Notes: generated by a model not told the origin, from the sequence alone. 63,279 nucleotides of DNA, filler included, from Asterionella formosa (GCA_002256025.1; 7 parts of 7 records of this genome joined end to end with filler, not necessarily neighbours in it), one strand, 5' to 3'; shown: positions 1-56,436, numbered from the whole stretch's first letter. Translations and numbers: made by a program.

Positions 1-286
1 AGGTCTACCCTCATACTAACTGGTAGGAGTACCTGTAGATGCAAGCAGGCAGAGCTGCGATTGAGTACTGCTTACTGTAAAAAATAAGTATATACATTGT
101 TCAATAAAAACATGCAATATGGTTGGTTATCAGCATCAAGTTTACTGACACGGTAGCTGGTACCTGATACCAGGTATACCAAGCTCAATTCTGAAGGGCA
201 CGCCACATTGTTATATTGATTCGCAAAATCAATCCAAAACAAGAAGACAACAGTTCGCCCTCACAAAAGTTTGACCCAAAGGTATT

Positions 287-874
287 ATGTCAACCCACCA
301 CCAACCCTTCCAAACCACCGACGGGGACGATAGAGGGGAGGTTCCAAGTGGGTGTCCTGCTGGTGGTGGTTGTACTGATATTTATAGTCTCAGCATTGAC
401 ATGGGGAAACCACAGCCATTGAATGAGGTGCAACCTCGCGACGATGCAGTCAACCCCCGGCTTGTGAATCATTTCCAATCGGAGATCTCATCGATCGACA
501 AAATGAATCTTCCCCAAGATTGTGATGTTATTAACAGCATCGATGGCACCGATGATTTGTTTTCAATGTCTCATCGGCACGCAGCAACAGGTTCGTGTCC
601 TACTCCTCCTGACGCCAACAATGTCAATGGTGGTATTGGTGATTGCGATGCACGAAAACTGGAATCACTGTGTGGATATATTGAAAGACTGTACCTAATC
701 TGGGATCTGGTCGAAGATAAAGATGACTTGCTACATGAGATTGTGACCATGAGATGTCAAGAAAGCGAGGATACTGACATGAAAGAAAAGGACGTTGCTG
801 ATATGAGCAGCTGGTCAGAAGACTCCATAAAGATCACCAGGCGTCGACTCTGTGGCCACTCATTACAACAATGA
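287..874 (+). CDS. Hypothetical protein (195 aa, acidic), no recognisable domain
   Basis: ATG-initiated open frame whose 3' end converges on eEF1B-gamma; no motif recognised. Confidence 0.3.
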   Translation: MSTHHQPFQTTDGDDRGEVPSGCPAGGGCTDIYSLSIDMGKPQPLNEVQPRDDAVNPRLVNHFQSEISSIDKMNLPQDCDVINSIDGTDDLFSMSHRHAATGSCPTPPDANNVNGGIGDCDARKLESLCGYIERLYLIWDLVEDKDDLLHEIVTMRCQESEDTDMKEKDVADMSSWSEDSIKITRRRLCGHSLQQ

Positions 875-1019
875 AATCGTGCAACTACATTTCCTCAAAA
901 CCCAAGCTACAGCCCGCGTGGTACACAATCATTTCAGGATTATCTACAAGAATGAAACAACTAAATGACTAAATTCTGTTTGTGTGTTTTCTGCCTTTCA
1001 CAACAGTGTTGCCTCGTCT

Positions 1020-2625
1020 TTACTTGAAGACTTTGGAATCCTGAATGGGTTTTCCTTCCAATTCATTCTCTGAACACCAGTAGGCCGCCACTTGTGCCTT
1101 GACCTCATCGGTAGGATCAAGTCCTGGTCCAGCAAGCTTGGTCCAAGTATACCAATTGGCATCATCATTGGCCGCCTTCATGTGATCCACTGTGTCACCA
1201 CGGAACAACCAAACGCCCTTGATTTCAATCAAAGAACCTTCCTCACCAAGAACGTCCCTATCAGTTTTTGAAGAGAAAACATTGTGGTCATTGTGGTTAG
1301 CCACAAAGATTTAGTGAAATCCCGCAGACATATTTCACGACCCTAACTTACATGACACCAAATGCCCACTTTCTAATTTCATCTGAACGTTGCTGAAATC
1401 CACCAACGGCATTACCCGCCATGAAAATTCGTTTGTTATCTTCATTGTAGTTGTAATTTTGATGCCAAAGGGACCATCCATCCTTATCGAATGTTTCCCA
1501 AAATGCAGCCATGGCTTCTTCATAGGTGGCAGCATTGGAATATGTCTTTTTCCATGCATCCATGGAAAATTTGGAAGGAGCATCCCGATCCATAATTTTG
1601 TACGGATGTTCTTCCTTCTTGACTGGCTCAGCAATGACATCATCAAAATCGTCCTCCTCTTCTTCCTTCTTTTTCTTTTCCTTCTTCTTCTTTTCCGCCT
1701 TGACTGGGGCAGGCGCAGCAGGAGCAGCAGCTTGTCCTGGAGCTGTCATTTCGCTCTTGGCAAAAGTGACTTGTCCCAAAACAGCACTAAAGGCTGGTTG
1801 GTTGACACATGTCGTGAACCAACGAACGACATTGGGAAATGGCTTCAAGTAATTCTTGTCAGCGACCAACTTGAATGGATACAACAAGGTCGAAACAACA
1901 GCAATGTCAGCCAAGGTAATAGTGTGTCCTACCAAAAAAGTCTTGGTCAGGAGGTAGTCATTCAATTTGGCAAGGCCCTTGGCAAGGTCGTCCTTGGCCT
2001 TGGTGTAACTGAAGGGGTAATGATAATAGAAGCAACGAAGTGAGTAAGACAGGGGTGAAATCAACGTCGTCCATGAAACAGCGGAACCCATAACCCAACG
2101 AGAACCTCGAAGGTGTGTTTCCATAGGTCTGAAGAGTAACTTACGCTTCCTTATTGAAGGGCATGTATCCAGCCACCTACGAGTAAAAGAGGAAGAATGA
2201 GTGAATGGCAGTTATCGGATTGGATGCACAAGTTCCCCAGTGCAGTTCAGACAGAGCACCAACTCCCCCAACCTCCACTAGGCACGTACCGGATAGAACC
2301 AAACGCACGACGGCAATTCCAATTCTTGCGCCGCAAAGTCCATCCATCCATCGATAATGGCCGCTTCCGCCAAGCTTCCATCTCCCACCAAGCCAGTATC
2401 TCTACGAATGCCAGCAACGTATCGTGCCATGGCATGACTTGAGAACAAGGCCTGGCCATTGGGGAGCACCAGCAAGGGCGCCTTGCCAGATGGACTCATA
2501 GCCGCCACAGTGCCAGCATCAAAGTCGGAAGTGACAGTGATTGCAACGCCATTGTACTCGGCGGCGATCAACGTGGAAAAGGCGCGGAAGGAGCCAGCGG
2601 GGGCGTACAAGGTATACACTGGCAT
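1020..2625 (-). CDS. EEF1G: Translation elongation factor 1B gamma (GST-like N-domain, charged linker, EF1G C-domain); exons 2625-2290, 2176-2145, 2008-1352, 1257-1020
   Basis: GST-like motifs (SPSGKAPLL, TFLVGHTITLADI, FPNVVRWFTTCVNQP) and EF1G-domain motifs (FSMDAWKKTYSN, FDKDGWSLW, IKGVWLFRG). GT..AG introns keep the frame: CCG|gtacgt, GC|gtaagt, AT|gtaagt. Confidence 0.95.
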
Positions 2626-3107
2626 GATGAAGGGCAGATGTACCTGGTAGTAAGAGGAAACAGGGCTGGAGAATGATTGTTATTACCGGTACCAGGTACC
2701 TCGTCTGCTCAAGTGATGTTGTTTTACATAAATATCGGCAGGTATTCATATCGTATGTACCGTACCAGGTACTATGTAGCTACCAGGTACCGCTTCCTCC
2801 CTGCCATGGCATTGATTGGTGAAATGGAGATTTAGTACCACTATCGTTATTCATAGTTTTACCTAGTACCAGGTACCTGCTACCGGTACTACAGATACCG
2901 TTTGTACACTGGAAGGTCCGAGATTCAGTGACTTGCCTGCTGTAGATTCAGTACCATCACAGACGACAAATGCCTGGCTACCATTCCTTTCCGGGGAGAG
3001 GGACAGGCGGACTGTTTGAATACATCACTTGCCCTTCAGGCATCGCTCCTCGCGTCCGCAAGAAATTTCAGGGTCATGCCATGATAGAACCAGTACCTGG
3101 TACTTGG

Positions 3108-3363
3108 TGAGCGATCTCGCGCATCAATACAGATGTCTATAGGGTTAGTGTTATATCATTTACTGGTATATAAGAACTCAATAATGAGAGAACTCGACTG
3201 ACCCATATTGTATACTTTGGTGTCGACTTGATGCATCATGACATTTAATGACTACAAGGTACCAACTGCAATTGGCTTGGTATTTGGTTGATGTACTAGT
3301 GGAGATGCTCTTATAAACTCGTCATATATTTATCAAATATATTACTTCAAGTAAGATACTTCA
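3108..3363 (+). mobile_element. Probable solo LTR of the Gypsy family seen at 54339-55904
   Basis: TG...CA ends (tgagcgatc...gatacttca); shares tcaataatgagagaactcgact and the terminal agatacttca with 55710-55904. No clear TSD. Confidence 0.7.
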
Positions 3364-4559: not shown

Positions 4560-5077
4560 ACAATACTGTACCAGCTACCAGGTACTGGTACCATGTGACT
4601 GTAAAAAGTTTAGAATTCTACCGTTTGTCAGAAACTGGTACATTAATCTAGGTACCTAGTACTGGTCCACCAGGTATCGTCTGGCTCGGTACCAGGTACC
4701 AGGTACCTGGGAACCACGTACCATATAGTAAATTTTGAAACCGGTAGTTTAACGGTAGCCATATCCAAGAGAGGCAGGTGGATCTTTTGTCTGGCTATAC
4801 ATATCATCGAAACATGATACGTTACTGGAATGATGTAGACTAATAAAATACATGGACATATGTTATTGTTCTGTCGGGGGAACAATTGTACGCGTAGATA
4901 AACAAAACCAATTTCATGTCCTCACTTTCACCGGCATTTTGCAGCTCCTCTGCTTGTTGCATTTTTCATTCCGCTCAAACTTCTTCACATCGATTCTCCG
5001 GTACATTGCAAATACCATAAATCACAGGCACAGGCACAGCCTAGCCCACTCACTCACTCACTCACTCACCCATCATC

Positions 5078-7828
5078 ATGTCTAGAATGATGCTTGCTGC
5101 CGCACGCCGCGTGGCTGTGCACAACAACGGATCGCTGCTGCTGCAACAACAGCGCTTCGCCTGTCCAAGGCGCACCCTGTCGTTCTGGACCGACTATCAA
5201 GCGCACGTGTCGGAACGCGCGGCCATGGCGAACGGATATGGCATTGCACCCAAGCCACTAGATGCCAGCCAAGTCACCGCCCTGATTGACGACTTGACGA
5301 GCAACACAGATGCGAAGGAACTGGTCCAGCTTCTGGCCACCAGAGTCCCGCCCGGAGTCGACGAAGCTGCGTACGTCAAGGCGGGATACCTCTCGGCCTT
5401 GGCAACCAACAAGGAGCCCTGTCCGTCTGGAATCACTAGAGAGTACGCCATTGAATTGCTGGGCACCATGCAGGGGGGATACAATGTGGCGACGCTCGTG
5501 GAGCTCCTGTCGGATGCAGACGCGGCCATTGCTTCCCTGGCAGCGCAGCAACTCTCAAAGACTCTTCTGGTATTCGACGCCTTTTACGACGTGGAGCTGC
5601 TGCACAAGAACGGATGCAAGGCGGCCACGACTGTCTTGGAATCATGGGCCAAGGCGGACTGGTTCTTGACCAGACCATCCGTACCACAGAAGATCACCAC
5701 CACCGTCTTCAAAGTCACAGGGGAAACCAACACGGACGACTTGTCGCCAGCACAAGATGCATGGAGCCGACCAGACATTCCCCTGCATGCCGCATCCATG
5801 CTCAAGAATGCACGCGATGGCATTACGCCCATCCAAGACGGGACCTTGGGACCACTCCAGCAAATTCAAGATTTACAAGCCAAGGGTTACCCTCTCACCT
5901 ATGTTGGAGACGTGGTGGGAACTGGCAGCTCAAGAAAGTCGGCGACCAATTCGGTCTTGTGGTTCATGGGAGAGGACATTCCATACGTGCCCAATCTCAA
6001 GGGCGGCGGCTTGTGCTTGGGCAGCAAAATCGCACCAATCTTTTTCAACACCATGGAAGATTCGGGAGCACTTCCCATTGAATTGGATGTGTCGAACTTG
6101 CACATGGGAGATGTCATTGATGTGTACCCTCATGACGGAAAGGTATGCAAGGCTGGGACTGACACTGTTCTATCAACCTTTGAACTTAAAACTACTGTCA
6201 TCTTGGATGAAGTTAGAGCTGGAGGACGCATTCCATTGATTATTGGACGTGGTCTCACATCCAAGGCGCGGGCCGCCCTTGGTCAGGACTCATCTGTCGC
6301 TGACATCTTTCAGTTAGCACCGCCTCCAACTCATGTACCTCCGGGATTGACCTTGGCGCAAAAAATGGTTGCCAAGGCATGTGGCATCCCCGCTGTCGTT
6401 CCGGGACAATATTGCGAACCAGCCATGACGACTGTCGGATCGCAAGACACTACTGGACCCATGACACGAGATGAATTGCGCGGTTTGGCTTGTTTGGGAT
6501 TCAGTGCTGATTTGGTCATGCAATCATTTTGCCACACGGCAGCCTATCCAAAGCCAGTCGATGTGGTGACACACCATACCCTGCCGGACTTTATTCGCAC
6601 AAGAGGAGGGGTGTCCTTGAAACCTGGGGATGGTATCATTCATTCCTGGTTGAATCGTATGCTTATGCCAGATACTGTGGGAACTGGAGGAGATTCTCAC
6701 ACACGATTTCCCATTGGGATTTCCTTCCCGGCTGGTTCGGGACTGGTGGCCTTTGCAGCTGCGACTGGCATCATGCCACTGGACATGCCGGAATCGGTCC
6801 TTGTCAAGTTTACTGGAGACATGCAGCCCGGTATTACTTTGAGAGATTTGGTTCAAGCCATCCCCTGGAAGGCACAGCAAATGGGATTGTTGACCTTGGA
6901 CAAGAAGGGAAAGAAAAACATATTTTCAGGAAAGATTTTGGAAATTGAAGGCTTGCCTCATTTGAAATGCGAACAAGCATTTGAACTTTCCGACGCCTCG
7001 GCCGAACGCTCTGCTGCTGGATGCACCATTAAGCTTGATAAGGAACCCATTATCGAGTACCTTAACTCAAACATTGTTATGCTTAAGTGGATGATTGCTG
7101 AAGGGTACGGCGATGCCCGAACATTGGAACGACGCATTGCTCGCATGGAGGAATGGCTAGATAATCCGGTCTTGATGGAAGCTGACCCAAATGCAGAGTA
7201 CGCCCAAGTGATTGAAATCAACTTGAACGAACTCACTGAACCAATTTTGGCATTGCCTAATGATCCAGACGCTTCCGCAACCTTGAGTGAAGTTGCCGGA
7301 CGTCCCATTGATGAAGTCTTTATTGGTTCTTGTATGACGAACATTGGGCATTTCCGTGCTGCTGGAAAACTCTTGGAAAAACTCAAAACTCCGCTTCCGA
7401 CTAGACTTTGGATTGCCCCACCTACCAAAATGGACGAAGCTCAACTTTCCGAAGAAGGATATTATTCAATTTTTGGTACTGCTGGTGCCAGAACAGAAAT
7501 GCCAGGATGCTCCTTGTGTATGGGCAACCAAGCTCGTGTGGCCCCCAAGTCCACCGTTGTATCAACATCGACCCGCAACTTTCCCAATCGTCTTGGACAA
7601 GGAGCCAATGTTTACTTGGCATCGGCAGAACTTGCTGCGATTGCCTCCATTCTCGGACGTCTCCCTACCATGGATGAGTACCTTTCGTACATGGACCAAG
7701 TCAATGCCACTGCTGCAGATACCTATAGATACTTGAACTTTGATCAGTTGCCTGCCTTTGTCAAATCAGCGGATAGTGTGGAGATCAGTCAGGAAATGAA
7801 AGATGCGGCCCATAAACTAATGGTGTAA
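5078..7828 (+). CDS. acnB: Aconitate hydratase B (bacterial AcnB type) with a predicted mitochondrial presequence; intronless
   Basis: AcnB motifs [55 protein letters not shown]; Fe-S ligands GSCMTN and [12 protein letters not shown]-terminus [13 protein letters not shown] is Arg/Ala-rich with no acidic residues. Confidence 0.97.
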
Positions 7829-8963
7829 GTTATGGGCATGTCTAGGAAGGAGGAAGTGGTTAGTAGTGGCGTGTGTGTCATGTGAAGAGACGAAACAAGA
7901 AAAGCACAAAGAAAAAAATTATTTTATTAATTCAGTAAATAGTCTATGATGATATCTTCTTTACTCTTGTAGCAATAATCATTTTGCTGCTATTGTGAGG
8001 TTGACTTCATTCCGAATGATGTGGACTTGTTTCTCTTTTTGATTTTGTGGTAACTGCTTCTAGGACAACCCTTTTATAGTGGGGTTATTCAATGGGTGAG
8101 ATGTATTTGAAGCGAGTATAGCAATAGTTCTCCTGCCATAATTAGCTAGACATATATCCTCTTAAAAGACACTGCATAGTCTTGTCTAGCTAGGAGAACA
8201 ACAGTCCATACAGCATCATACTTTGGTATCAAAGAGTAGACTACATTGCTTATATTCGACTCAAGGGACTAGTCTAGGTCTACCAGGTATCCTGATACCT
8301 GGTGGAGTATCTAACAAGCAGTAGTTATCTTTATAGAATCAACATGGTGGAATGATTTAGTGGTAAGCACACCTTCTGGGGTGGTATTCCCGCACTGTTC
8401 GCCTTCTTTCGTTATGCAGTCCCTAGGGTTCTTCTGGCTTGTGAGGTCAATAACAAGCTGGTCAAAAAATATATGGGAATAAATTTAGCGGAATATCTAT
8501 GTATAATAATACATGTACTGGTAGTATCTGCCTACAACATTCCTGAATACATATTTACTACAGTAGCTACGTATACTGGTGACTATTACAATACAATTAT
8601 TTATGTATTGTTCTACATGTATGTATGTTCTTGGAACATGATGCTTGCCAGTACCAGTGTCAGGTAATTACTAGGAGGAGTGGCAACATCATGACAATGA
8701 GGAGCAATACGCCTAGTACCGGTAGTATCGTAAAATAAAAATTCCAAAGGGGGCACAATTCTACTGAAATAAATAAATTGAGGTCAGGTTGACCTAATTC
8801 TAGACTACTTGACCACACCGTAAACCTCCTAATATCTCCACGGATATACCGGTAGTAACTCCACATGAACCCTCCGCATCACAAGTCGCTCCACATTGGG
8901 GGTTCAGCCAATCATAATATCTCCACATGTAGGTAGCATTTTTGCATGTGTGAAAGCCATGTA

Positions 8964-9666: not shown

Positions 9667-11208
9667 GGCGACAAGGGTGGTCAGAAAAGGATTCGTCTCG
9701 TTTTGGGTTACAAATTTTGGCTTTCTCGTCGGCTGCACATCAGGACCGATGGGCACTTTCGTATGTGCGTTCGGTACCATTCAGGTACTGTAGTCTAGAT
9801 GCATGTACAGTAGACAGTAGTATTAATATTTTGTTTACAACATATCATTTCATTTAGCCGAACGGTAGTAAGTACATGTGTACTGGTAATTATACATACC
9901 GATACTCAGATAGCACGCCTCTGGAATATGACACAGGTGATATAATCATACATACTGGTACATGGTGACTGGCAAAACCGTTGTTTGAATACGGTAGGTA
10001 GAAGTGTACACAGCGGTAAAGATATTTAATTAACATACCGGGACATATATATGCCTCGACCATACGATGCGTTGTATTTCAGCATATTTCATTTGGTACC
10101 TGGTGGAGTACCTGGTACCGGGTCGAGGTACAGGTACAATAACTATACTGGAAGGTCTGGTAGAGGACGTTTTATGCGCACCTTTTCAGTTTCGACGCAC
10201 TCCCAATGGATTGTCTCATGCCTGCCAGACGAGATAGACTGGCTTTTCATTACTTTCTTTGATGTTAAATTCTCATTCATTAAATCCACGTGTTCTGATC
10301 ATCGAAATCGTGTTCATGATACTACCGGTACTACTGGAAATGGTATTCAGCAACTGGATGATGGTTTGCTAACGGAATTCACCAATAAAAAAAATCAGTA
10401 ATTTCCAGTCATGGTCAGCAGTTTTTAGTCATGTTAGCAAATTCTAATTATTTTCTAATCGTTGTGAGCAGATTTCTACCAGATAGTTGCATCAGCAATG
10501 ATATACAAAAGAGTCAGTTTGAAAATGTAAATCAACTTTCTATTGACATTACTTAAATAGAGAATCAAGAAAAATTCGTTCGACCGCCTGCTTACCATAG
10601 CGTAGTGGCATCCTGTAAAAAATGTCGAATCTGTCATAATTTTGTCATTTTGAATTGTGGATCATTTAAACTATGTAAAGCAATGTGCCATTGGCGACCT
10701 CAATTTTCGTTGTCAATATTAGTGTTATTTCAATTATTTTTTATGATTGTATGATCCATGTTGTATTAGATATATTCACTAGATAGCATAGCGTCGTTTT
10801 CATTTTCCATGGAGAAATTCGTTATTTTCGACTGGTCAAGACGGAGATGGCATGATGCAGAATTCTCCACACAAGAACTACACTCTAGTGTTTAATCTAC
10901 AGAAAGAAATCGCAACATCTAAGCTAAATAATTAATACTAGCTTCTATAAGGGCTACCTTGGGTATCTGGTACCCGTATCCTACTTAGCCATACTGTATA
11001 TATGATATGTGGTAAACCGATATGTATGATATTGCAAATAGTATAGCGGTACGTGATAATGACTGTGACCATGTAAATAGATATGATGTTACATATGCTT
11101 ATATGTAGTTTTGGCAAGCAAGGCAATCAGGGGAAGTGGTTGTGTTCATTCATGTATATACTTCATAGGCATAAGGGTTTTTCATGAAATTTCCAGGTAT
11201 TCTTATTT

Positions 11209-14768: not shown

Positions 14769-17700
14769 TGTTGGAGAAAATATTTTAGGAAAGAAAATCC
14801 CGGTATAAATTACCTACTACATATTAAATCGAATGAATCAAGAAAGAATATGGTACCAGAGAATTCGAAAACAATCTACGCCAACAGTAAAAAACCCATA
14901 ATTCTATTAAAACTCTTAGGAACGATTCCAATCGATCACGGAGACATCGTTGTTATATCTACAGCCTATTTGGTCCCTGACGTGTCCTTACAGGATACAA
15001 GAAAGCATAGGGTGCTTCGGGACGCAATTTCAACAGTTTCAATAGAATTAGCCGGCCAGGAAGAGCCGTGATACCACAATCAACAACAGGTGGACCATTG
15101 AGAGTCCGGAGACAAGATCTGAGGGTACCAGACCATCCAGAGTCTGAAGAAGTCGCACAGGGCGCATCATGAGTGGCAAAGGAAAGTTTACCAAGAAGAC
15201 TCAAGCCAATGGCAAGTTACAAGCCAAGGGAGGGAGCAATATTGCTTCTCACTCAATCAAGAAGTCAGTCAATGATTATAACTACTACCTCGGATCATCG
15301 AAGCAGGCATCTGACTATGAGACCACTACTGAGTATCTCATCAACTACATCAATAAAGTGTTTGATTATGGCAGCGACATTGGAATTGCACTCAAGTCAT
15401 TAGAACCAATCAACACATCGGTATGGAAGCCAAGAATGCAAGTGAGCATGGCAGCAACAGAAGAAGATCGCGCCGCAGAGAATCGGCAATTTGAGATCGA
15501 GTTTAAGGCTGATTATGACAATACAGTAAAAGGGTACAGGCCTACGAAAATAATAACACCAAGGCATATGCGTTGCTCTGGGAAAGATGCAACAAAGCCA
15601 TGAAGAACAAGATTGAAGCGAGATCTGATTACAATAGGATCGAAAATAACCCAATAACATTGCTTATGGCAATTAAAGAACACGCACTAAATTTTCAAGA
15701 AAATCGATATTCTATGTCGATCATTTTAGATGCAATGAAAACGCTTTTATTTACAAAGCAGAAGGAAGGAGAAAGTCTACAAGACTACACCAAGAGATTC
15801 CGTGTGGCACGTGATGTGCTCAAGTCACACATGGGAGGACCCATTATCCTCACCAAGTTCGTTGAAGCCATGGATGGATACAACAAGACCGACATCAAGC
15901 AACGAGATAAATTTCGTGAACAAGCTTTCAGTCAATTTATGGCATATTTATATCTCGATAATGCCGATAAAGCCAAATACGGATCAATTATGACCGGGCT
16001 GAACACTCAACAGTCACTCGGCAACGACCAATACCTGAAGACCATCACCAAATCAAATAATGTTCTCAGCAACCATCGGTTTGACGTTACAAATAAATCC
16101 AACTACAAGAAACCAGGAGATAATGATAAAGAGAGGACCAAAGGATGCAGGCAAGGAAGACAAAGATGTGAACTTATCGTTTGCACAGTTAGAAGGAAAA
16201 TGTTACTGCTGCGGAAAAGCAGGTCACAAATCTCCTTCGTGCTGAGACAAGAATAAACCCAAAGAGGAATGGGCAATTAACAAGGCCCAAAGCCATGCAC
16301 AGGCTAATACATCCGACACGAGTACAGTTACCTCTGTTAATTCCAACAACCCGCCATCATCACAAGCTTCTCAACAAGCAAATGCCAATCAATTTGGATG
16401 GACAGGAGCTCATATGAAACTACAATTTTACCAAGCATCTGAGATGCGTGACTGGATACTATTGGATAATCAATCAAGTGTCACAGTCTTTTGCAACCCA
16501 AAAATGGTTAATAACATTCGAATGTCAACCAACAGAAGCATGCAACTGGCCACAAATGGTGGATCCATGGTAACTAATATGAAGGCTGATCTTCCAGAAT
16601 GGGGAGAAGTATGGTTTAATGAAAAGGCAATCACAAACATCTTCAGTTATGCCGAAATGACAGATAGGTACAGAATTACCTACAATTCCGAGAAAGAATC
16701 TGCATTCATTGTTCATTTTCCTGACAAAACAGTTCGATTTGAAAGAATTGGGATGAACTTATATGTTTTCAAGCCAACTACAAGAATTAGAGCGGAGAAT
16801 GCTCAAATGTTAAATACACTTGAAGAAAACAAAACATTTTACACTGAACGTCAATTTCAGAGAGCTAAGCAAGCTCGTGATCTATTTCATGCCTTGGGTA
16901 CACCATCAATTAATGATTTCAAGGCAATAATTTGTATGAATACGATCAACAATAATCCAGTGACTACCAATGATATCAAAATTGCAGAGAAAAATTTTGG
17001 ACCTGACATTGGAACACTAAAAGGCAAGACAACTCGTCGCAAGCCACTGCCAGTCGTGAACGACTACATCGAGATTCCTAAGGAGCTTACCCAAGCTCAA
17101 CACAAAGTGATTCTTTGCATGGATGGAATGAAAGTGAATGGACAATCATTTCTCACAACAATTTCTCGAAACATTATGTATAGGACAGCGCAATGGGTCA
17201 AGAATCAGACAGCTGAAGTCTATCGAGATGCTTTGATTCAAGTATTCCGTGTTTATAATACCGGAGGATTTAAAATTACAACAATCCACTGTGACAACGA
17301 GTTTCGACCTTTGATGGATCAAATTATATTGAGTCAATTGAATTCATGGTCAACCCATATGATCCATGCGATGCAAATCGCATTGTTAATGGCAAACAGC
17401 ACACAGTTACTTGGCACGTAGACGATTTGAAATCAAGTCACGTGGACAGCAAAGTGAATGATCAATTTTTGGAATGGCTCAAACAGAAATACGCTTCTGA
17501 CGAAATTGGTGAAGTCAAGGTCATGCGTGGAAAGAAACATGATTATTTGGCGATGACACTAGATTACTCTCTTCCAGGAGTGTTGAGGGTGGACATGACC
17601 AAATATGTGAAATCAATGATTGATGATTTTCCAATGAAGCTTGAAGGTGTTGGAAAATTCTCATGCACAGATAAATTGTTCACAGTTGATACAAAATCAA

Positions 17701-18025
17701 AGAAGCTTGAATATGAAAAAGCAAAAATATTTCATACTTTTGTTATGAAAGGAATGTTCCTATGTAAGCGAGGAAGACAGGACATTCAACCAGGAATTGC
17801 ATTTCTGGCAACCCGAACTACCGAACCGAATGAAGGCGATTGGGTAAAATTAGTCAAGATCATGAATTTCTTGAAAGCAACTCAGAACGAGGTTGCATCT
17901 ATGAGTGCTGATGACACTCAGAGCATTAAATGGTACGTTGATGCGGCGTTTGCAGTGCACAAAGATTTTAAAAGTCACACAGGAGCTACAATGTCACTTG
18001 GACACGGAATTATCTGTTCTATGTC
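14769..18025 (+). mobile_element. Degenerate Ty1/Copia (CoDi-like) LTR retrotransposon: putative 5' LTR 14769-~15088, then gag, protease, partial integrase, RT and RNase H; truncated by the scaffold end
   Basis: TGTTG...CAACA LTR ends; gag Zn knuckle CYCCGKAGHKSPSC; protease WILLDNQS; integrase IHCDNEF; RT NPYDPC and WHVDDL; RNase H WYVDAAFAVHKDFKSHTG. PR-INT-RT order; frameshifts and a stop at 16243. Confidence 0.92.
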
Positions 18026-18676
18026 NNNNNNNNNNNNNNNNNNNNNNNNNNNNNNNNNNNNNNNNNNNNTTAATTAATTAANNNNNNNNNNNNNNNNNNN
18101 NNNNNNNNNNNNNNNNNNNNNNNNNCTCACATCTGCATATATGGAAGGGAAAGATGTTATTTATGTCGAAATCCAAATTATTGGACACAGACACAACAAA
18201 CCCTCTGCAGCATTGTGCACAAAGATATTAAGTGCGGTTTCTTACCTTGTATCAAGCTTGATTTTTATCGTTGGTCCTGAGGAAGTGGAGAAACTTTGAG
18301 TGGTAGCAGCGCACATGAACAGCGATACAATTTTATAGTTTGCTTCCGGTCTCACACGGTACTGATCATAAGCCCCTTGGTGGCCACATTTGAGAAGCAA
18401 AACAAAATCATATAACTTACCTCTTCTCACCGGTTGGTTTGATACCGGTAGAAGGCTCTCTATCACCATTACCTCATCAGTTTCTTATGTGGAATAGAAC
18501 GCATTACCGGTATGAATTTTTTTAACAACAATATCTGAAAATTTCCTCTTCTTCAAAAAGTTTGTATAACATACATCTCTGTATGTCTAGTAATTTTTTT
18601 AAGGAACATTTAATACCCTACCAGTATGTATGATTAGATAAAATATACAAGACTTAACAAGAATTCGAATACCCGG

Positions 18677-18876
18677 TACTGTGAAACTGTATGTATTAAT
18701 ACGCTGGTACTGTGAAACTGTACTAGGTTTGCCCTACCAGCATTCCCTTCTTCCCCTTGTCTCAATACCCGGTCGGAACATGACATGGTCGTGGCTACAG
18801 TGAAACTGTACCTATTACTAAGCTGGTACTATGAAACTGTAGTAGGTTTGCCCTACCAGCATTCCCTTCTTCCCCT
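18677..18876 (+). repeat. Dispersed/tandem repeat (tactgtgaaactgta...ggtttgccctaccagcattcccttcttcccct); two units here and two at ~26720-26882
   Basis: Near-identical strings at 18708-18758, 18827-18875, 26720-26765 and 26822-26875. Confidence 0.8.
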
Positions 18877-21545: not shown

Positions 21546-22764
21546 CGTATGCTGAGTAAAACGTTAGGTCTAATGGAAAATCTATTCACAGACATAACCT
21601 GGTACCAGGTTGTCAGAATGTGTTTGTTCGGCTGTTGATATCGACAGGTTTCCAAAGACTAGATGTAGTCTGAGTAATGTCTAAATGGAAATAGACAGTA
21701 TTTATATAGCAGAAGCAAACAAGTGGCGCAAGAAAGATCTTGACCAGTCATTCCAGGGCAGTACTGGAGCACGCTAGGAAGTAGCGCTATTAACTTCAAC
21801 ACCAGGCTACCGCTACCCTGGTATTTACCAGATACCTGTTACCGAGTACCAGGTACCATGCACTAGGTTCCTGGTAGGTACCAGGTACCACCTGTAGAGT
21901 AACTGAGGTGGTTCCCTCAAGAAAGCTTTAAGGCTGGTGCTAACCGTGGACCAAAACCAAATTGGGTTTATCACTGCTACATTCTAAGGAGTCAACACGA
22001 ATCCTACGTGTACCGGTAGGTAACTTTGGAAAAAATTCCCTATGTAAACGTAATGCATTTAGGTAACTTATTGGGATATGGGCACGGAATCCCTTAAAGC
22101 AAATGCGTTTGCGTTGGGTTTTTCACTCCCGTTAGCATCGCTTTTTAGGGTTTCCGAAACCAAAACTCTGTTTGGTTGGCGTTTTGGTTCATCGTTAGCA
22201 GCGGCATAAGGCTTACGGTACCAGGTACAAGGGCACCAGGAGGACGTTAGTCTACCGGAGCATACAGTAGTCGTATGTAGGAGTCCCGCCTTGTTCGTTT
22301 TACAAATGCTGTACTCAACCTTTCTGTGCACACAAAATAAATATCAAAAATGTGTGTGTATTTCTTTTTACGAGTTGTTTCGCGCAATTTTATTGGAAAT
22401 CCACGGTTGGCTCTTGGCTAGTGACATACTGGCCAGTGCACTACGGGTGCGCTGAAAGTGTGTGTGTGCGCCTAAACTACCGGTAATGCATTTCGTGACA
22501 ATAAACGGTAGAGGAAATCTGAAACTTAAATATCAAAGACGGATCGAATATTATTTGAAATAATTCATACATGAATATAATAATGAATCAAGTTGTTGAA
22601 ATTGATGATTGGCCGCCTCAACCCATTCTGTTTTTGAAAGCAGGCGTAGCAGAAGACCTGGTAGCCTCTCTCTCAAAAATCACCTGAAAAATTTTCTCCC
22701 GCTCACTTTCTCGTCAAATGGAATTTTGAGAAGGCAATTTCATTGCCATAAATAATTCTCAACC

Positions 22765-24309: not shown

Positions 24310-27300
24310 ATTTATATTACCTGTTGTAACATCTTGCTGCCTGCTAACATCAAGTCAAGTTCAGTGTATATTCTCTTTTTGTTGGAGAGACAAGCACTTC
24401 TTGCTTTTTTACGCGCTATCAATTCCCAGGTGCCGTATGCAATTTGTAGCAAAAAGTGCGCATTTGTGGTTGCATCACCTGAAAAGTTCTATGAGAAGGC
24501 TTGGAGCCTCATTAAATGAACCAGGAATTATTTCCACCACAATGCCAGCAGCATTCCCCAAAGATCTAATGTTATGTCTAGGTCATGGTTGCTTCGATAC
24601 CAGTATTCAGTGCTTTTTGAATAGTTGACCATTTTTGTGTTTTTTTCGCGATGGTAATTTCAAGAATTGCTGATTTGTTTCCTTCATGTGGACATTCAAC
24701 TGAAATCTTTCATCAACGAAAATGTTATTTCTAGATGAAGTGTCATCTGGCTGGTTTGATCGAACAAGGAATCGACAGGTTAAATTGCAGTCCTTGTTAC
24801 GCCATGTCTATGTATGTTCGCTTAGGCTTATGAGGTTCATATGGCTCATTCGTTTTGAGACTCGGCCATCGCGACACCGCCTACCGAACTCGTTGATGAC
24901 AGGCTTGCGCGTATATGGCATTTTCAAATACAAAAATAACCGGCCGTGTATACAGAATTAATAAATTAGTATATGAAAATGATTCATGTTTGATGTGCGA
25001 CCCAAATGTCGCTGCTGGCCTGCAGTTGACCCATTATCCTGCTACATAGGAATGTTCCGCAGCTCGACCGAATAAGATTAAACGATCGTTTACTTCCCGC
25101 CACGTTGCACGCGTCAAGGAAGCAGGCAGCGCCGAATGTGTTCTATTTTAAGAACTGCTGCGTTTTAAATGTATGTTCCACTTGCTTGCTGCTACGGGTA
25201 TCAGGCTAAGTACCGGTAATTCTCCTGATAATGGTAACCTGGTGCCACCAAAAACCTGGGAGTCACATGAAGGCGTAGCTAATCACACGGTTTTGACCTA
25301 CCGGTAGTTTGGTACAATATTCACTTGCTTCGCTACATAGACCTACTCTTTAAATACCGGTACATAATAAAAGTTCTACTATGCATATCATGTACAATAA
25401 TATCATAGGCCCTTTTATGTACATATACAAAGGCTACCGGTAGCTGACATGTACCACCGGAATACTGATTCTTACTCTAAACGTACACCAGTACATATCT
25501 TAGAGACAATCCGGCACACAAAATAAATGGGTATAATTATGTGGTACTTCACGTGAATTAATGCTTCTCTTTCCGTAAAAAGGTTACTTTTAACGGTTTC
25601 ATCTTCACAAAAAAACTTTGAAATCAAGACTGAATCAGTTGATATTTCAAATAATTCATTTCTAAGTTCAACAAGTCCTGCTCTTGAGGCAAATTCATTT
25701 ATGACATGCATCTTGTTCCTTTGTGAAATAGTAAGGATAGTTGTGGTGTCTTAATTCATGCTACAGTTTATGGCTGTGCACTTCATGTAAATAACATTTA
25801 CTATTATACTGAACAAGATTACTTGTCATGGTTTCATGTGATGGTTCACAATCATATGGTTATTTCAAAGGCAGGACTAGTTGATGATACAACTAATTAT
25901 TTTAAAAGTTCAAGAAACATTTTTTAGAGGATAAATCATTGCAAAAGAAAACTTCACTACTAATTGTTTGATTGCAATCTGCCCTTAATTGATTGAGAAA
26001 AATGGAGCAAAATGGATCTCGAGAAATATCGCGACATGATTCGTGATGCAAGCAACAACCAACCCTAATGAGCACAAAAAAAGGTATGGAACAAATCATT
26101 TAATATTTAATTTGAAATACTTAACTATATACCTTTTCGAATTAGTGTGTGTTATCGACTGAAAATTTTCTGAGTGCTATCGGGCATGAATTGATGGAGA
26201 AAATCGAAGCAATGTGGTTGTCGGCAACTGGGTGCATGAAGCATACTATCAACAATCATCCTTACCATCAATATTGTCAGCATCCAATATGAATTCTCTT
26301 ATTCTTTTACCTAAACTATATTTCTCATGATTTCTAAAGATACAAAATAAATAAATAACATACCTGTAATGTGAATATGTCTGGAATGGCGTCGTGATGC
26401 TGAGTGTGTTGACCTCAGCTAATGAATAGATATGGTACCTGGGACCAGGTACCGGTATAAAAGGCCTATATAGGGCTATAATACATACTACCTGGGCTAC
26501 CAGGTAGCAGGTACCTGCAAAATGCGGTAATTTTGCTGAAACTAAGGATTTAGCTCTCTTTATCACAGATTAAAATGTTAGTTTAAGCAAAATGACCGCA
26601 ACTTGCTACCTGGTACCTTGGGTCTTTTAACGCTGCACTCAGACAGACTAGCAAATAGCTATACTGTATCGTACCACCAGGTACTCCTGGCTGGTAGGAA
26701 CCAGATCGTCATTACAAGTGTGAGACTGTAGGTTTGCCCTACCAGTATTTCCCTCTTCCCCTTCTTGTTACAATAGGAATTATACCATTCGTACTGTGAA
26801 ACTGTACTCATTTCTACTTGCGTACTGTGGAACTGTAGGTTGCTTTGCTCTACCAGTATTCCCGTATTCCCCTTGTTACAATAGAATATGGCGTTAAAAA
26901 AAATCGAATTAAATGGATTGCAATTTAATACTCAAATATTCTACTTCTGTTCACCCATACTTTCCACTGTGCATCCTCTATCAGAATGAGCACACAGTGA
27001 TCTTCAATACCTTAATTTTCACTTCCGGTAACTATGTTTAGATCATTGCCTTTTCAAAATGAAATGAGAGAGTAAACGAAATTGATGNNNNNNNNNNNNN
27101 NNNNNNNNNNNNNNNNNNNNNNNNNNNNNNNTTAATTAATTAANNNNNNNNNNNNNNNNNNNNNNNNNNNNNNNNNNNNNNNNNNNNACAACAAGAACGA
27201 TGCCTTTGTAAAAATTGTTCGTCCATGAACTCACTCTGCGACCGTTGTTCACTGATTGCAGACAATCAATTTGATGAGGGCTGGGTTGGACATTGGGGAA

Positions 27301-29158: not shown

Positions 29159-29913
29159 TCATTCTCATACCAGTTTCCATCTATAGGATTAGTCATACTG
29201 TGTGCTACAGTTACATGCCCAGCCCTAGAAGGGCTGGATGCTCCATAGGGATGACGCCTATAGGCGTCTTTCCTTTTCCCTCACCCTATAGTATAGGCAT
29301 ACCACTCCATCTGCCGGACTCACATCACGGGTGGCGGGTATATTACATATATTATTATCCAGTACCTGGTACACAGATTACCTGGTACCGGTATACCGAT
29401 TCCGACAAAGGCTTGTCTGTGTATATAATATTTTATATACTACCAGGTACTGGCATCTATGACCGATGCACACAAATGCCTCATACCGGTACATGTGGAT
29501 ACTTATCGATTGAGACACCATACCGGTCACCATCTGCATAGCATACAACGCGCTAGACAAAATATAATCACAATATCCATCAGATGCCATACCGGTACAC
29601 ACATGTGTTAACGTCCATCACGGAGGTCGAAGGGGAGTGGGGGGTGTACAGCAGATACTCCTGTTGCGCAAATCCTATGGAAAAATTAACAATTTACCCA
29701 TAGTAAACCACACCATAGTACCCCTCTCACACTATCAATCATCAAGCGGCCAACCATCACGCTACGCTTACTTGGGACAGCTACCAGGTACCAGGGCTCG
29801 TACGCATACACCGTACCATCACCAAGCATTGAGTCCTTACTACACTCGAACACATTGCTTGTCCGCATTATTACATGGATGAGTTTTCGAGCCTCAAAGG
29901 CACGACTAGAAAT
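29159..29913 (+). mobile_element. Non-coding dispersed element, possibly a non-autonomous Helitron; 5' part recurs at 30359-30486 and 3' part at 55905-56436
   Basis: Copies align by eye; 5' TC start; internal palindromes ccagccctagaagggctgg and gacgcctataggcgtc; 3' hairpin tcgagcctcaaaggcacga followed by CTAG. Confidence 0.55.
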
Positions 29914-30489
29914 TTAGCCTGCCTTTGATACTGGCAAGTACTAAGCTAAAGCTTCGTTTCTCCCATACTCAGATATAGCTTTGTCTACTCTTATTAGGCA
30001 ATTTCTACTAGTCTAGTACAAATTACCGTACTGCTCTATACTTTTGTCCCACGTGCACAAGCGAGACAACCAATTTGAACCAACTGTACTACAGGTGTAC
30101 GAACATACTTCTGTAAGTTGACCAAACGTCTGGAGTCGTGATTGAGCATTGCTGGAGCAATAGCTCAGGTCGGCTTCTTAAGCCGAAGACGCCAGTCGAA
30201 ATTATGCACATCCAGTGCCCACTTTCTTGTCATACACTCGCGAGTTTATGGTTATCAGGTCGCAATGATCCCATTGCAGTCCTGACGTTTCTTTGTGGTT
30301 CCTCAAACTCGTTTCTTTCTTTTCCATCCCACCCTCCCTGCGGTTAACCCTAACCCTATCATTCTCATACCAGTTTCCATCTATAGGATTAGTCATACTG
30401 TGTGCTACAGTTACATGCCAGCCCTAGAAGGGCTGGATGCTCTATAGGGATGACGCCTAGAGGCATTGTCCCTTTTCCCTAACCCTAAC

Positions 30490-33777: not shown

Positions 33778-33811
33778 AGTACCAGGTACCAGGTACCAGG
33801 TACCTGGTACC
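33778..33811. repeat. Tandem GGTACC(A/T) 7-mer array, the clearest example of a motif found across the window
   Basis: agtaccaggtaccaggtaccaggtacctggtacc. Confidence 0.9.
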
Positions 33812-40219: not shown

Positions 40220-40458
40220 AATAATCTAAGAGAGTTCCATTTAATGTCTTGGCGTTTTTATGACCAAACGCCTTAATTTCACGTTTTCTTTTTTTGCACT
40301 AAAAGAAATAGCAGAATAATAATGTTATTAGATTTTCAATTTAGAACTTCTGGTTATATGTATATTGTATGAAAATATAAATAGATGTTTGCTGTGCAAG
40401 AACGCACAGTAGCTGCAATGCAATGGAACATCAACGAAGGGGTACCGGTAGGCGACCT

Positions 40459-44379: not shown

Positions 44380-44670
44380 GACATTGTCATGATTTGATGC
44401 ATAGAAGCGGTCATGGAGGATTAATTATTATCAAACCCTAACCCAAATCCCCCAGATTTGGGGCTAGGGCTAGTTTCTTGACACCATAGTGATCATGATG
44501 CAATGCACAGACACGGTCGTGGAGGAGGAATTATTGTCGAACCCTAACCCTAAAGGGCTAGTTTCTTGACACCATACCGGTAGTGATCTTCATGTAATGC
44601 CCAGACAGGGTCGTCGAGGAGGAATCATTGTCGCACTAACCCTAATCCCCCAAAATTTAGGGGTTAAGGA
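44380..44670. repeat. ~3 degenerate tandem units each carrying a telomere-like (a)accctaaccc
   Basis: ggagga..aattatt.tc.aaccctaaccc and gggctagtttcttgacaccata recur. Confidence 0.7.
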
Positions 44671-44974
44671 ATGACACCCCCATCGGAATTGAAATAGAGT
44701 TGACCTGACCAAACCGGCACCCTGACCAATTTTGGATTTGACCTTGTGGTACAGCCCCCGTAGAACTTCCGTATGATCTTGTCTTATTTTTAGTTCATTC
44801 AATTATGGATATTTTTTCATTATTATAAATGATTTCCAATGCCGCTGGCGCGCGCTACACGAATCCGTCGTAAAAAGGTACGCAATAGCAGTCCAACAAT
44901 TTTTATGTACATCGCAAACTCAGTATTTTTGCGCAGCACTCGTGGATGAATGATTATCATCTTTATTAAGGTTC

Positions 44975-45150
44975 CTGCATTTGAACCCCTAGGCAAAATG
45001 TAAAATATTGCTTAGGGTTGCCGAAATTCCCTGGAACTAAGAATTTTTATGAGTTAATTTTGAATGACGTGATTCCAATTGAAATATTTGAATCACTGGA
45101 AATTTGCGCGTACATACATAGATTCCTTTTCGAATTCAATAAATATATAC
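44975..45150 (+). repeat. Dispersed repeat, second copy at ~57712-57885
   Basis: ccctaggcaaaa..taaaatattgcttagggttgcc.aaattccctggaa...tgaatgacgtgattcca is shared by two scaffolds. Confidence 0.85.
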
Positions 45151-45517
45151 ATAAACGTTCTCCATCGCTCAATGTTTATATACCCTATCATACNNNNNNN
45201 NNNNNNNNNNNNNNNNNNNNNNNNNNNNNNNNNNNNNTTAATTAATTAANNNNNNNNNNNNNNNNNNNNNNNNNNNNNNNNNNNNNNNNNNNNGGTAGTA
45301 TACGGAGTACGGAGTCTTCCTTTTCTTATTACCGGTTGCGGGAAGGTGATCCGAATTGCGAAAGTAAGGTCAGCAAGCAAAGCAAGCAAGGACTTGTTCA
45401 CCACAATATCATAATAACAAAAGCGAGTGCACTTTATCACATCCGTCTAAACATATATATATTGTATGACTATACAGCAACTAAAGTTAACAATCAAGTA
45501 AACAAGTAATCAAAACA

Positions 45518-49958: not shown

Positions 49959-50349
49959 ACCAAATAACACATAGCACAAACGCCCAGCGAACCATTCCTA
50001 TTGCATTGCAACCAGTCGTACCGGGGCATACTTTTCGCTCACGATGGGATGTTTTGACATTTTGGTGTTCCTATTGAATGTGCGCAAGACAAAGTACCGG
50101 TATCATTTTATTTTTAGTACCAGGGGGTACCCTGGTCCTACAAAAGGAGCAAGGAAGAGGTGCTTTGCAATATCATCAATCATCCTTGCTTCTCAGCTGT
50201 AATTGCCGACGATTCGCTAATGGAAATGCAGAGTAACACTATGTTAGTATTACAGTACATGTATTCCAAATTATTGTTCCGCAACCATAGCATAGCTTCT
50301 GTTTAACTTCTCGATCCATCTCCAATAGCAACATAAGCGAAGAAAGACC

Positions 50350-53300: not shown

Positions 53301-53508
53301 GGCGTTCGCCCTTTATGATGAATGGGGTGCGGTGACAAAGTGTGAGAGACTCAAGGATGAGAACGGGGCACTCTTGGGTGCAGTCACTGGCCCTAATCCA
53401 GGTGGTAACTTTAGTCACTGTACACAGCTGGCTCCAAATGCAAGACTTGTGTGCTTGGGGGGCGATATATACAGGCTGGAACAGCAAACTAACTCGACGG
53501 AGTTCTGA
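50350..53508 (+). CDS. STAND/AAA_16-type P-loop NTPase with helical (TPR-like) C-terminal region; frameshift at A8 50689-50696; intron 52310-52401
   Basis: FVGREKE, Walker A SGEEGVGKT, Walker B VVIFLDNMDCAD, GNPFYL, YEFSH, and C-terminal YDNAI..S...AALGCELAG...AFALYDEWGAVTK. Removing one A gives the continuous LKKSLRGETAVL. Confidence 0.8.
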
Positions 53509-54338
53509 TTGACTACATTGACTAGGATTAATTCATTTTGTAATTTGTACTTCTGTGTAACTTATATCTGGGAACCCCCTCCCACGAATCGGCTGAAAAC
53601 CTATTATTATGTGAAGCTAGCTTTATTGTGATAGTCGAATTACCGTTGATGCGATTGTTTGTATGAGTTTTGCATTCATTTCGCAACGTTCCCATGATCC
53701 TTACATAGTGAAGTGGGCCAGCAATGCACTTCTTAGTTAGGAGGAAGTAGTCTTCATGTTTACATCCGTTGATCGATATTCCCCTCTATTTCTGGGGAGA
53801 TTTGAGGTTTTAGTAATCAATTGCTTTGATCAGTCTCAGCAAGGTTCAAATGTAACTCACATACCGGTAACGGTATCCCACATCTGTTCTCACTCATTCT
53901 ACGACGAGTAAAAACAGGAATATACATTACCCGCTATGATAATTGGAATTTCGTCGTTGTGATACCGTTGCAATTTGCAGATGATGGTTTGGAGTATCAG
54001 GAGGTATGTTTCAGTATTTTCCTCACCATGTCTCGGTCGGATATGATTTTATGTGAATTCGGCGGGCAGTCATGCCGTCAGCCAGAGCTATAACATACAT
54101 GCATATATCATAGAAAGGGGAATACACGTACCGGTATGTCCCGGGAATAAGTATTTTTATGCACATATCTATGTATGAAGTTAATTGTGTTAAAATTGTT
54201 GTTTGTCCTCCATACATGGATGTTAAAAAATCACTCACNNNNNNNNNNNNNNNNNNNNNNNNNNNNNNNNNNNNNNNNNNNNTTAATTAATTAANNNNNN
54301 NNNNNNNNNNNNNNNNNNNNNNNNNNNNNNNNNNNNNN

Positions 54339-55904
54339 TATTGCAGATTCCATCTCTCGCCTCCCGAGGCTTGATTCTTTGGTGGAGGATGATATTGATA
54401 TTGGACCGAAATCTCCAACGTCAACTTCCACTTCTACTTTTTCAATTGAATTAGATGATGAACCTTTGCTTACATGTTTCCTTAATCATCCCATCTTGAC
54501 AGACAATATTCAATATCCTCTGGATTATCATTTAATACATGATAGACCATTGCTGGATATGCAATTGATTCTCAATCAACAAACACATCCATTAAAATTT
54601 CCTTCTATCAATTTTCATGATATAATTTTAATATGTTTTGTGAAGAATCCAGGAGATACTTGGCGTATTGCTATTCCTACATTATTATTGGATCCTATTA
54701 TTAATTGGTATCATCAGATGTTGGCTCGTGTGGGTATGACAAGATTAAATGCTACAATTGCTACACATCTTTATCACCCTACATTAAAAGCAAGAGTGGA
54801 ACATATTGTAAGAGTATTTGAAGCATGTCAACGTACAAAATTACCTGGTACTGGTTTTGGTGAACTTCCACCCAGGAATGCATTATTATTACCATGGTCA
54901 GAAGTCGCAGTAGATCTAATTGGTCCATGGAAGATAACAGTGGCTGCTCAAACGATTGAATTTCGTGCTCTAACTTGTATTGACACTGTCACCAATTTAG
55001 CAGAAATTTCACGTATCACCAATAAAACATCAGAATATATTGCAATGAAATTTGAAAATGATTGGTTAGCCAGATATCCCCGTCCAGAACGTTGTATACA
55101 TGACAATGGAGGTGAATTTACTGGTGCTCCTTTCTTACACATGTTAGTATTGAATGGAATCAAAGATGTGACTACCACAGTAAAGAATCTACAAGCAAAT
55201 GCTATCTGTGAACGTTTGCATCAATCTATCAGCAATAGTCTACGAGTTATGTTTAAGGCTCATCCTCCAATCAATGAATTTCAAGCCCAAAATATTGTGG
55301 ATACATGTTGTGCAGCTGCGTCATATGCAGTTCGAGCTACTATTCATAGTATATTACGTATTTCACCAGGAGCATGGGTTTTTCAACGTGATACTATGAT
55401 ATTAAATATTCCTTTGATTACAGATTTACAATTAATACATCAACGTTGACAAGTGATAATTGACGAATGTTTACGTCATGCTAATTTCCGTCTTCGATCT
55501 TATGATTACAAAGTGGGTGACGAGATTTTAATACTATTGGATAATCCTACTACTTTGGATGATCGTGGACGAGGTCCTTATACCATTATTCAAGTACATG
55601 CCAATGGTACAGTTACTTTTCAACGCACTATGCATATTACCGAACGGATTAATATTGGTCGTATCAAACCTTTTCATAGGTAAAAGGTTTTCCCTCAAGT
55701 GTGGGAGAGTGAGCAATCATGCACATCGATACAGATATATATAGAGTTAGGGTTATGTCAAATATATCGGAATTCAATAATGAGAGAACTCGACTAACAC
55801 CCATTCTATACTTTGATGTCAGTTCAGGAAATGAGTTATACATAAGGATTAATTAATAAGCTCATATATTCAACAAATACTACTACTTCTAGTTAGATAC
55901 TTCA
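54339..55904 (+). mobile_element. 3' end of a Ty3/Gypsy retrotransposon: integrase (stop at 55447) with GPY module, PPT, and 3' LTR 55710-55904
   Basis: PWSEVAVDLIGPW, IHDNGGEF, NAICERLH (D,D,E); GRGPYTI; purine tract gggagag immediately before TG; LTR ends gatacttca and has a homologue at 3108-3363. Confidence 0.9.
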
Positions 55905-56436
55905 CCTGGTACACAGATTACCTTGTACCGGTATACCGATTCCGACTGGGTCTATATATATAATATTTTACATACTACCTGGTACCAGGTACCGGCATCT
56001 ATCACCGATGCACACAAATGCCTCATACATGTGGCTACTTATCGATTGAGACACCATACCGGTCACCATATCCATAGCATACAACGCGCTAGACAAAATA
56101 TAACCACAATATCCATCAGATGCCGTACACACATGTGTTAACGGCCATCACGGAGGACGAAGGGGAGTGGGGGGTGTACAGGAGATACTCCTGTTGCGCA
56201 AATCCTACGGAAAAATTAATAATTTACCCATAGTAAAGCACACCATAGTACCCCTCTCACACAAACAATCATCAAGCGGCCAACCATCACGCTACGCTTA
56301 CTTGGGACAGCTACCAGTGCTTGAACGCATACACCGTACCATCGCCCAGCATTGAGTCCTCACTACACTCGAACACATTTCTTGTCCGCATTATTACATG
56401 GACGATTTTTCGAGCCTCAAAGGCGCGACTAGAAAT
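55905..56436 (+). repeat. Second copy of the 3' portion of the 29159-29913 element
   Basis: cctggtacacagattacc...gatactcctgttgcgcaaatcc...tcgagcctcaaaggc.cgactagaaat is colinear with 29365-29913. Confidence 0.9.

Follow-up and report, generated by a model that had tools for sequence, protein, structure and literature searches.

Which process has written the same short palindromes over and over into the non-coding DNA of Asterionella formosa? The question is raised by a stretch of 63,279 nucleotides of its genome (GCA_002256025.1), the window hereafter, which consists of seven contigs of ~9 kb each joined by six artificial N-TTAATTAATTAA-N linkers. Two words are at issue: TACCGGTA and TACCWGGTA (W being A or T), which we call the CCGG and CCWGG forms after their cores. 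These palindromes are probably the excision footprints of cut-and-paste elements that target TA, present in tens of thousands of copies in non-coding DNA. An element of the IS630/Tc1/mariner/pogo type would insert at a TA dinucleotide and duplicate it; when it left again, a staggered cut would keep a few bases of its termini attached to either flank, and joining of these ends would turn TA into TA+core+TA.

The motif is real and genome-wide. The enrichment on which the first-pass annotation of this DNA had built is pronounced: against a second-order Markov model the window holds 31 TACCGGTA where 0.65 are expected, 29 TACCWGGTA (0.66 expected) and 16 GTACCWGGTAC (0.04 expected), while a fourth-order model expects 7.5 and 1.9 of the first two. 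The three words rank first among the 8-, 9- and 11-mers of the window, respectively. The core of the motif is TA+CC(W)GG+TA, the outer G and C being a flank of the CCWGG form only; the statement that the palindrome occurs in all seven scaffolds holds for TACCGGTA (7/7 contigs) and fails for GTACCWGGTAC (5/7). Each of the 14 places at which dense clusters had been listed contains at least one TACCGGTA or TACCWGGTA, and the described switch of W inside one array is also found. A second sample of eight further contigs (196 kb) of the same assembly (G000; 15,436 contigs, 68.4 Mb), picked from the contigs that the dimer search below listed, contains 92 TACCGGTA (1.7 expected) and 82 TACCWGGTA (2.0 expected). 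The pooled 257.6 kb hold 123 and 111 sites, from which we extrapolate ~33,000 and ~29,000 genome-wide and a density of ~1 per kb overall. Counted across the assembly, the TACCWGG dimer TACCWGGTACCWGGTA occurs 5,576 times and its reversed control twice; the window (5 vs 5.0 expected) and the 196-kb sample (16 vs 16.0) carry it at the genome-average rate.

With open reading frames (ORFs) of at least 150 amino acids as a proxy for coding DNA (30,433 of 61,355 window bases), 59 of the 60 sites in the window lie outside, bearing out the earlier impression that the motif is rare in long genes; in the 196-kb sample 21/174 sites lie inside ORFs. Around 11 hand-delimited genes, with an upstream zone of 600 bases, sites number 35 per 10 kb upstream and 15 downstream, against 0.4 within the gene bodies and 12 in the remaining DNA. 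An artefact of assembly, adapters or linkers, which the fragmented assembly and the artificial joins might lead one to suspect, is already refuted and has next to no probability left: the cluster at ~21750-22089 is covered by contigs of two independent runs made in other studies, X2 and X6 (0 and 1 substitutions), the motif is present in at least 121 metagenome loci, and it is polymorphic among diverged paralogues and avoids ORFs. Over 18126-27087 the X2 contigs exceed the window by 6 and 7 letters, a difference that we do not count as evidence.

How units come and go is visible in paralogous repeats, on which the gain and loss of 7-base units, which the first-pass annotation had proposed to compare in orthologous DNA, could be followed: whole 6- and 7-base units are gained at TA. 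Between two copies of a dispersed repeat in the window (A and B), all four internal indels of 6-7 bases are CCGG or CCWGG units at a TA, one further gap, of 5 bases, being unrelated to units; among 24 copies of this repeat, insertions of the CCGG/CCWGG type recur at several TAs. An all-against-all comparison of 246 records yielded 1,011 de-duplicated paralogue indels of 2-30 bases. The 75 6-mers among them include 28 that duplicate TA, 17 with the core CCGG (47 others are not TA-duplicating), and the 40 7-mers include 11, 8 with the core CCWGG (29 others are not). Shorter TA-duplicating cores are also restricted: C or G in 68 of 71 cases with 3-base indels and GC in 28 of 32 with 4-base indels. 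These C/G and GC cores indicate, from sequence comparison, that the conversion of TA to TA+core+TA is a general process.

The CCGG unit is the minority state among paralogues in 10 of its 17 events and the majority state in 2, the other 5 being ties. The flanks of these events are unrelated, and 16 of the 17 are not tandem duplications; therefore the inserted bases are foreign. The idea of a templated-insertion footprint thus survives in the insertion of TA-duplicating 6- and 7-base units, and not in the templating of CCGG by its flanks. For CCWGG, 7 of the 8 events lie at TACC/GGTA half-sites, and one lacks a CC/GG flank. Units also vary between near-identical sequences: two metagenome contigs from different samples (L271 and L316, 1.25 kb) differ by three substitutions, one 7-base and one 6-base unit, and a third (L315) differs from L316 by no substitution and two 7-base units, although short-read collapse of arrays may contribute to these differences.

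Insertions that turn TA into TACTA/TAGTA (68 events) or into TAGCTA (28) outnumber the CCGG and CCWGG classes. Elements with TA/CTCCCTC ends (here and below a slash marks the element boundary) occur in L082 (807-3939) and in the window at 13718 (minus strand), and might have supplied the C/G cores; in the L082 copy, of 3.1 kb, the longest ORF has no Pfam hit. We take these ends to resemble plant Stowaway/mariner termini.

For the CCGG form a matching candidate donor is resident in the genome. The DDE_1 profile has 109 hits in the assembly. Among the families recovered, family A ends TA/CCGTAAAACC…TTTTACGG/TA, family C ends TA/CCGTATAC, and these two and a third family have the common termini TA/CCGTA…TACGG/TA, whereas family B has the end TA/CAGTG. 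Ends of the A/C type number 430 genome-wide against 21 for a control. The transposase triad has DD35D spacing, and families A and C combine a DDE_1 transposase, terminal inverted repeats (TIRs) and a TA target duplication, as pogo-superfamily elements do. Ends in CCGT are Tc2/Fot1-like; a target consensus of the AAGTACTT type was not seen for the pogo families here. Ten copies of family A share 99-100% identity across 1,955 bases and differ in their flanks where visible. The family includes L055:609-3072, L060:457-2921 and L038-L047, and many copies break contigs at one same place. The near-identity, the different flanks and the common break point suggest that family A is young and has been active recently or is so currently. 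A TA/CCGTAAGCC at 22205-22219 of the window (minus strand), adjoining a motif unit, is possibly the terminus of a further CCGTA-type element, assigned to none of the families.

Such donors would be expected to leave scars of this kind. TA is the target of the Tc1/mariner/pogo superfamily (PMC7325037), and a Tc1/mariner element leaves behind, between two TAs, the 2-4 bases with which it begins or ends (PMC6943129), as in TACAGTA/TACTGTA of Sleeping Beauty. Passer, a DD35D element of the pogo superfamily, likewise has a DDE_1 transposase, short TIRs and a TA target, and is described as leaving 0-4-base footprints and preferring promoters (PMC9976928); the upstream excess reported above (35 vs 12 per 10 kb) agrees with that preference. 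The families here differ from the Passer group in their CCGTA ends and diatom host. Since the core matches a resident CCGTA-ended donor, TACCGGTA is very probably the excision footprint of these pogo-type DD35D elements: CC and GG, or CCG overhangs paired through CG, could be joined to give CCGG.

The CCWGG form calls for a different source. GGTACC and CCWGG had been read as interleaved parts of one signal; a single signal is too simple, because the CCGG and CCWGG forms differ in flanks and in their distribution among organisms, and are thus two separate motifs with two sources. TACCWGGTA has G at -1 in 125/173 flanks and GG in 83/173, compared with GG in 18/232 for TACCGGTA and 3/41 for pogo targets. 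The difference from pogo targets (p=5e-7) excludes the known pogo families as its donor.

The organismal difference comes from a metagenome scan for the triple array, which found at least 121 loci. Of these, 32 grouped by eye (136.7 kb, array-selected and possibly from more than one species) have ~45% GC and, outside the arrays, no DNA similarity to the stretches fetched from the A. formosa assembly. They hold 372 TACCWGGTA, 231 of them separated from the query array by over 60 bases and 10 in ORFs, and only 16 TACCGGTA; the G-flank bias of TACCWGGTA is similar to that in A. formosa. One locus carries a gene with DUF6824, a domain that we take to be typical of diatoms, and on this ground the second organism is probably a diatom. 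Several of its loci (L250, L252, L253, L255, L267, L269, L272 and others) show an intergenic mosaic of TAC/TAG, TAGC and TACCWGG units (TACTA, TAGCTA). A metagenome locus of 54% GC (L318:704-1900, minus strand) has a C-5 cytosine methyltransferase gene near a motif array, probably by coincidence.

Sister words point to the end of the CCWGG donor. In A. formosa TACCAGTA occurs 81 times and TACCTGTA 21 times, and TACCAGGGTA 11 times and TACCTGGGTA twice; in the second organism the CCAG word is found 119 times against 9 for CCTG, and CCAGGG 22 times against 0 for CCTGGG. Because these nested words are one-sided in both organisms, the donor end is predicted to be CCAG, and the donor would be a separate element preferring GGTACC-like targets. 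A central A:A mismatch between its paired 4-base CCAG overhangs would yield a random W, as is described for Sleeping Beauty, in which a mismatch turns CAG into CWG (PMC6943129); each scar would then supply new (GG)TA(CC) half-sites, and arrays would grow. We consider it likelier than the alternatives, with less assurance than for TACCGGTA, that TACCWGGTA is the footprint of such an element.

Several other sources were considered and set aside. A CCAG end in L145 is internal to a longer inverted repeat, and the W of an 88-base miniature element (see below) belongs to a direct repeat outside its TIR and is target-derived. A common source of both motifs through context-dependent repair was rejected, TACCGGTA not being depleted in GG flanks; the 372 CCWGG against 16 CCGG units of the second organism also count against it. 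A hairpin-made palindromic footprint of the hAT type was rejected, as reverse-complementing the flank does not give the inserted CCGG. Five early events suggested that the strand of W is biased with respect to the CC flank, but no such bias is seen in the 257.6 kb (GG left only 25, CC right only 23). An origin of TACCAGTA purely by CpG decay was partly rejected, given its 119 copies where TACCGGTA is rare (16).

A number of points weigh against reading the palindromes as footprints. Excision itself was not seen directly, nor did the comparisons listed show a paralogous site at which one copy holds the element and another the scar. The ~33,000 CCGG scars face ~215 elements, requiring a very high turnover. 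Three-base footprints of the Sleeping Beauty type, which CCG ends should produce (TACCGTA/TACGGTA), are only ~2-fold enriched (30 vs 15). The agreement in G at -1 between pogo target flanks (12/41) and TACCGGTA flanks (66/232; p=1) is weak, since pogo flanks likewise do not differ from those of all TAs (p=0.47). A CCAG-ended element was not found in ~0.95 Mb of partly redundant A. formosa DNA; a search of the assembly with PF13358 (DDE_3) gave nothing at E<=0.001 and, when relaxed, mostly the DDE_1 pogo copies, and PF01359 (Transposase_1) gave one hit, below the cut-off. Two of the CCWGG event rows are probably one site. Exact tandem duplications account for 4 of the 8 CCWGG events and 31 of the 68 C/G events, and one unit by which L315 and L316 differ duplicates a decayed unit; because of these, slippage also acts.

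Some of the same observations favour the main rival for TACCWGGTA, though not for TACCGGTA: a conserved diatom process that adds a 7-mer at (GG)TA(CC) with no excising element, be it a host or domesticated nuclease with end-joining, templated insertion from other copies, or template switching at the palindrome with slippage. We regard this as unlikely, and hold the same of the related reading that TACCWGGTA is a non-spent, self-amplifying signature written near promoters and a landing pad for two transposon classes. Besides the donor missing from the sampled DNA and the transposase searches, the half-sites and the tandem duplications, it would draw on the recurrence of the unit, the sister-word bias and a similar G-flank bias in the second probable diatom, and on the A-to-T and T-to-A flips of W in 126/731 redundant paralogue comparisons, which is what one would see if template switching inverted the spacer. 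However, the inserted W or GG is not available locally at several sites, and in one event a CC/GG flank is absent altogether. The centre of the unit is A/T in 111 cases and C/G in 9; outside units, by contrast, GGTACC is followed by C/G in 110/312. Adjacent W pairs are random (AA 17, TT 15, AT 16, TA 17), though fast flipping of W could hide slippage. As for recurrence, conserved TIR ends of a transposon would also give one word in distant hosts.

The first-pass annotation had proposed a eukaryotic HIP-like signal, possibly a mark of chromatin, methylation or protein binding. In one version this would be an analogue of HIP1, the palindrome of cyanobacteria (GCGATCGC), made by a methyltransferase-linked repair ratchet acting on CCGG, CCWGG and GTAC. 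The two resemble each other in being hyper-abundant short palindromes that contain classic methyltransferase words, and the raised CpG transitions are compatible with CG methylation, which in Phaeodactylum is laid on transposons by DNMT5 (PMC9998398). Yet coding DNA is where HIP1 is enriched and conserved, in each of the three frames (PMC5861425), and its origin has been proposed to lie in a methyl-directed ratchet of substitutions (PMC4390886), whereas the motif here is non-coding, born by insertion, evidently clustered and arranged in tandem arrays. Its coding share (1/60 in the window, 21/174 in the 196 kb) is at odds with HIP1, and bare CCGG, CCWGG and GTAC are just ~1.7-2.8 times denser outside than inside ORFs. 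Nor is it protected: the central CpG of TACCGGTA mutates in 17% of redundant paralogue alignments, against 20% for all CpGs and 7% for GpC, and gaps are frequent and units are gained or lost between strains (in paralogues and a few strain contigs). The HIP1-like reading is therefore largely refuted and very improbable; CG methylation may explain the CpG decay, not the motif.

That the motif is primarily a selected cis-signal (a promoter or chromatin mark or a transcription-factor site), whatever its origin, finds some favour in the ~3-fold excess upstream of genes (21 sites in 5,978 bases vs 32 in 26,190 other non-genic bases), and in its targeting by two transposon classes, which could reflect a bound host protein. 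This too we consider improbable, if less so than the HIP1 analogue: the motif is abundant inside decaying repeats, its CpG decays as just described, units vary between near-identical strains, and pogo-type elements favour promoters on their own (PMC9976928). A secondary regulatory role is possible in view of the upstream excess.

Whatever wrote them, the units in turn serve as targets: by their junction sequences two transposon classes insert inside the CCWGG motif, a Gypsy family with a 5-bp CCWGG duplication and a NuwaI-like miniature element with a 3-bp CWG duplication. The latter, of 88 bases, has 1,132 exact TIR ends in the assembly, mostly in the context TA-CC-W; further copies of its family are in L086-L135, and an exact duplication of the three bases CWG is found in 16/27 pairs, that of the central base in 24/27. 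The CWG duplication is the signature of NuwaI, of the PHIS group (PMC4482050); NuwaI is described mainly from animals, and the word 'diatom' is absent from the main text of that paper. The Gypsy family has 586 exact 3' long terminal repeat (LTR) ends in the assembly (copies in L156-L185). At 20 scored genomic junctions, out of 28 (7 internal ones and 1 truncated being set aside), CCWGG comes next in 14, followed by TA in 13, and a solo LTR in L183 has CCAGG on either side. Since 156 of the 308 CCWGG outside ORFs have TA next, both elements may need CCWGG alone, supplied in bulk by the motif. Sequence-targeted Ty3/Gypsy elements are comparable in having a fixed target word; here that word is CCWGG, within a motif that is probably another transposon's scar.

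Table 1. Motif sites and associated elements in the window.
Position	Strand	Feature
159..180		TACCWGGTA and decayed neighbour
2640..2890		Five TACCWGGTA and two TACCGGTA, upstream of EF1-gamma gene (minus strand, start near 2625)
3093..3116	+	GTACCTGGTAC site, then Gypsy-family LTR start at 3108, directly after CTTGG
4568..4710		Three TACCWGGTA, upstream of aconitase B (5078-7829)
8281..8289		TACCWGGTA
10095..10120		TACCWGGTA with neighbours
21597..22227		Cluster: TACCWGGTA at 21847, 21879, 22219; TACCGGTA at 22011, its unit absent from paralogous copies (6-base insertion at TA)
25211..25442		Four TACCGGTA sites
26434..26615		Motif cluster with 88-base miniature element (26518-26605; TIR starts CAAGTTGCGG), inserted at CWG in motif
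29330..29920	+	Dispersed repeat copy A; relative to copy B, two more TACCGG units and one more TACCAGG unit
33779..33811		Four CCWGG units in array, W switch
40441..40450		TACCGGTA between convergent MetRS and RBR-ligase genes
50095..50135		TACCGGTA and decayed units alongside
54340..55904	+	Gypsy-type integrase region and 3' LTR (55710-55904), LTR end abutting CCTGGTA at 55905
55905..56440	+	Dispersed repeat copy B; one extra TACCTGG unit (55976-55991 array)
57684..58972	+	1.3-kb member of CWG-duplicating family, exact CTG duplication
58324..58331		TACCGGTA, lacking in paralogue (6-base insertion at TA)

The sites lie among genes for EF1-gamma, aconitase B, a cyclin, MetRS, an RBR ligase, an ABC protein, a DEAD helicase and an MFS transporter. 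Wherever the organism behind a DEAD-helicase match can be read, it is a diatom (the best named match at 72%), and the best-matching runs for scaffold 3 are algal and freshwater metagenomes. Other repeats also populate the window: a family starting TTAA/GGTT with long inverted repeats (44970-45190 and 57705-57900; also L145), presumably Kolobok-like; a very high-copy repeat of more than 3.4 kb (18126-21594), with hundreds of candidates in the assembly, a depth several hundred times that of unique DNA and a 225-residue ORF without a Pfam hit; and a 1.1-kb element (34928-36027) whose termini are long inverted repeats and whose interior holds a 194-base tandem array. A gene at 30489-33362 (minus strand) has a kinase-like region between 129-base ARM-repeat arrays, and degenerate retroelement-like ORFs at 15148-18025 have no Pfam hit at E<=0.001. 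Telomere-like AACCCTAA repeats (12 vs 1.0 expected) lie in dispersed repeats at 30345-30360, 30478-30488, 44433-44445, 44540-44552 and 44637-44646.

Footprints at single loci are textbook knowledge. The open literature, searched through listings and the openings of abstracts, yielded no account of a diatom in which footprints are the dominant words across the genome, and the words 'footprint', 'pogo' and 'mariner' are absent from a recent preprint (bioRxiv 10.1101/2025.10.24.684338). What would set A. formosa apart from Sleeping Beauty is the cores (CCGG and CCWGG), the ~60,000 scars extrapolated for one genome, their arrays and their rank as the top non-coding words. If the palindromes are footprints, such scars would be a main source of short insertions and the dominant non-coding words of this genome, reshaping promoters between strains, and TA-x-TA words that genome-wide motif scans find over-represented may reflect the history of transposons instead of binding by transcription factors. 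These words would then archive past transposon traffic and forecast the ends of donors. The scar of one element would become the target of others, Gypsy and PHIS-like, a possible route to sequence-specific integration. With a young DD35D family that looks intact, the claim is open to direct testing, and the family may also offer a native tool for work in diatoms.

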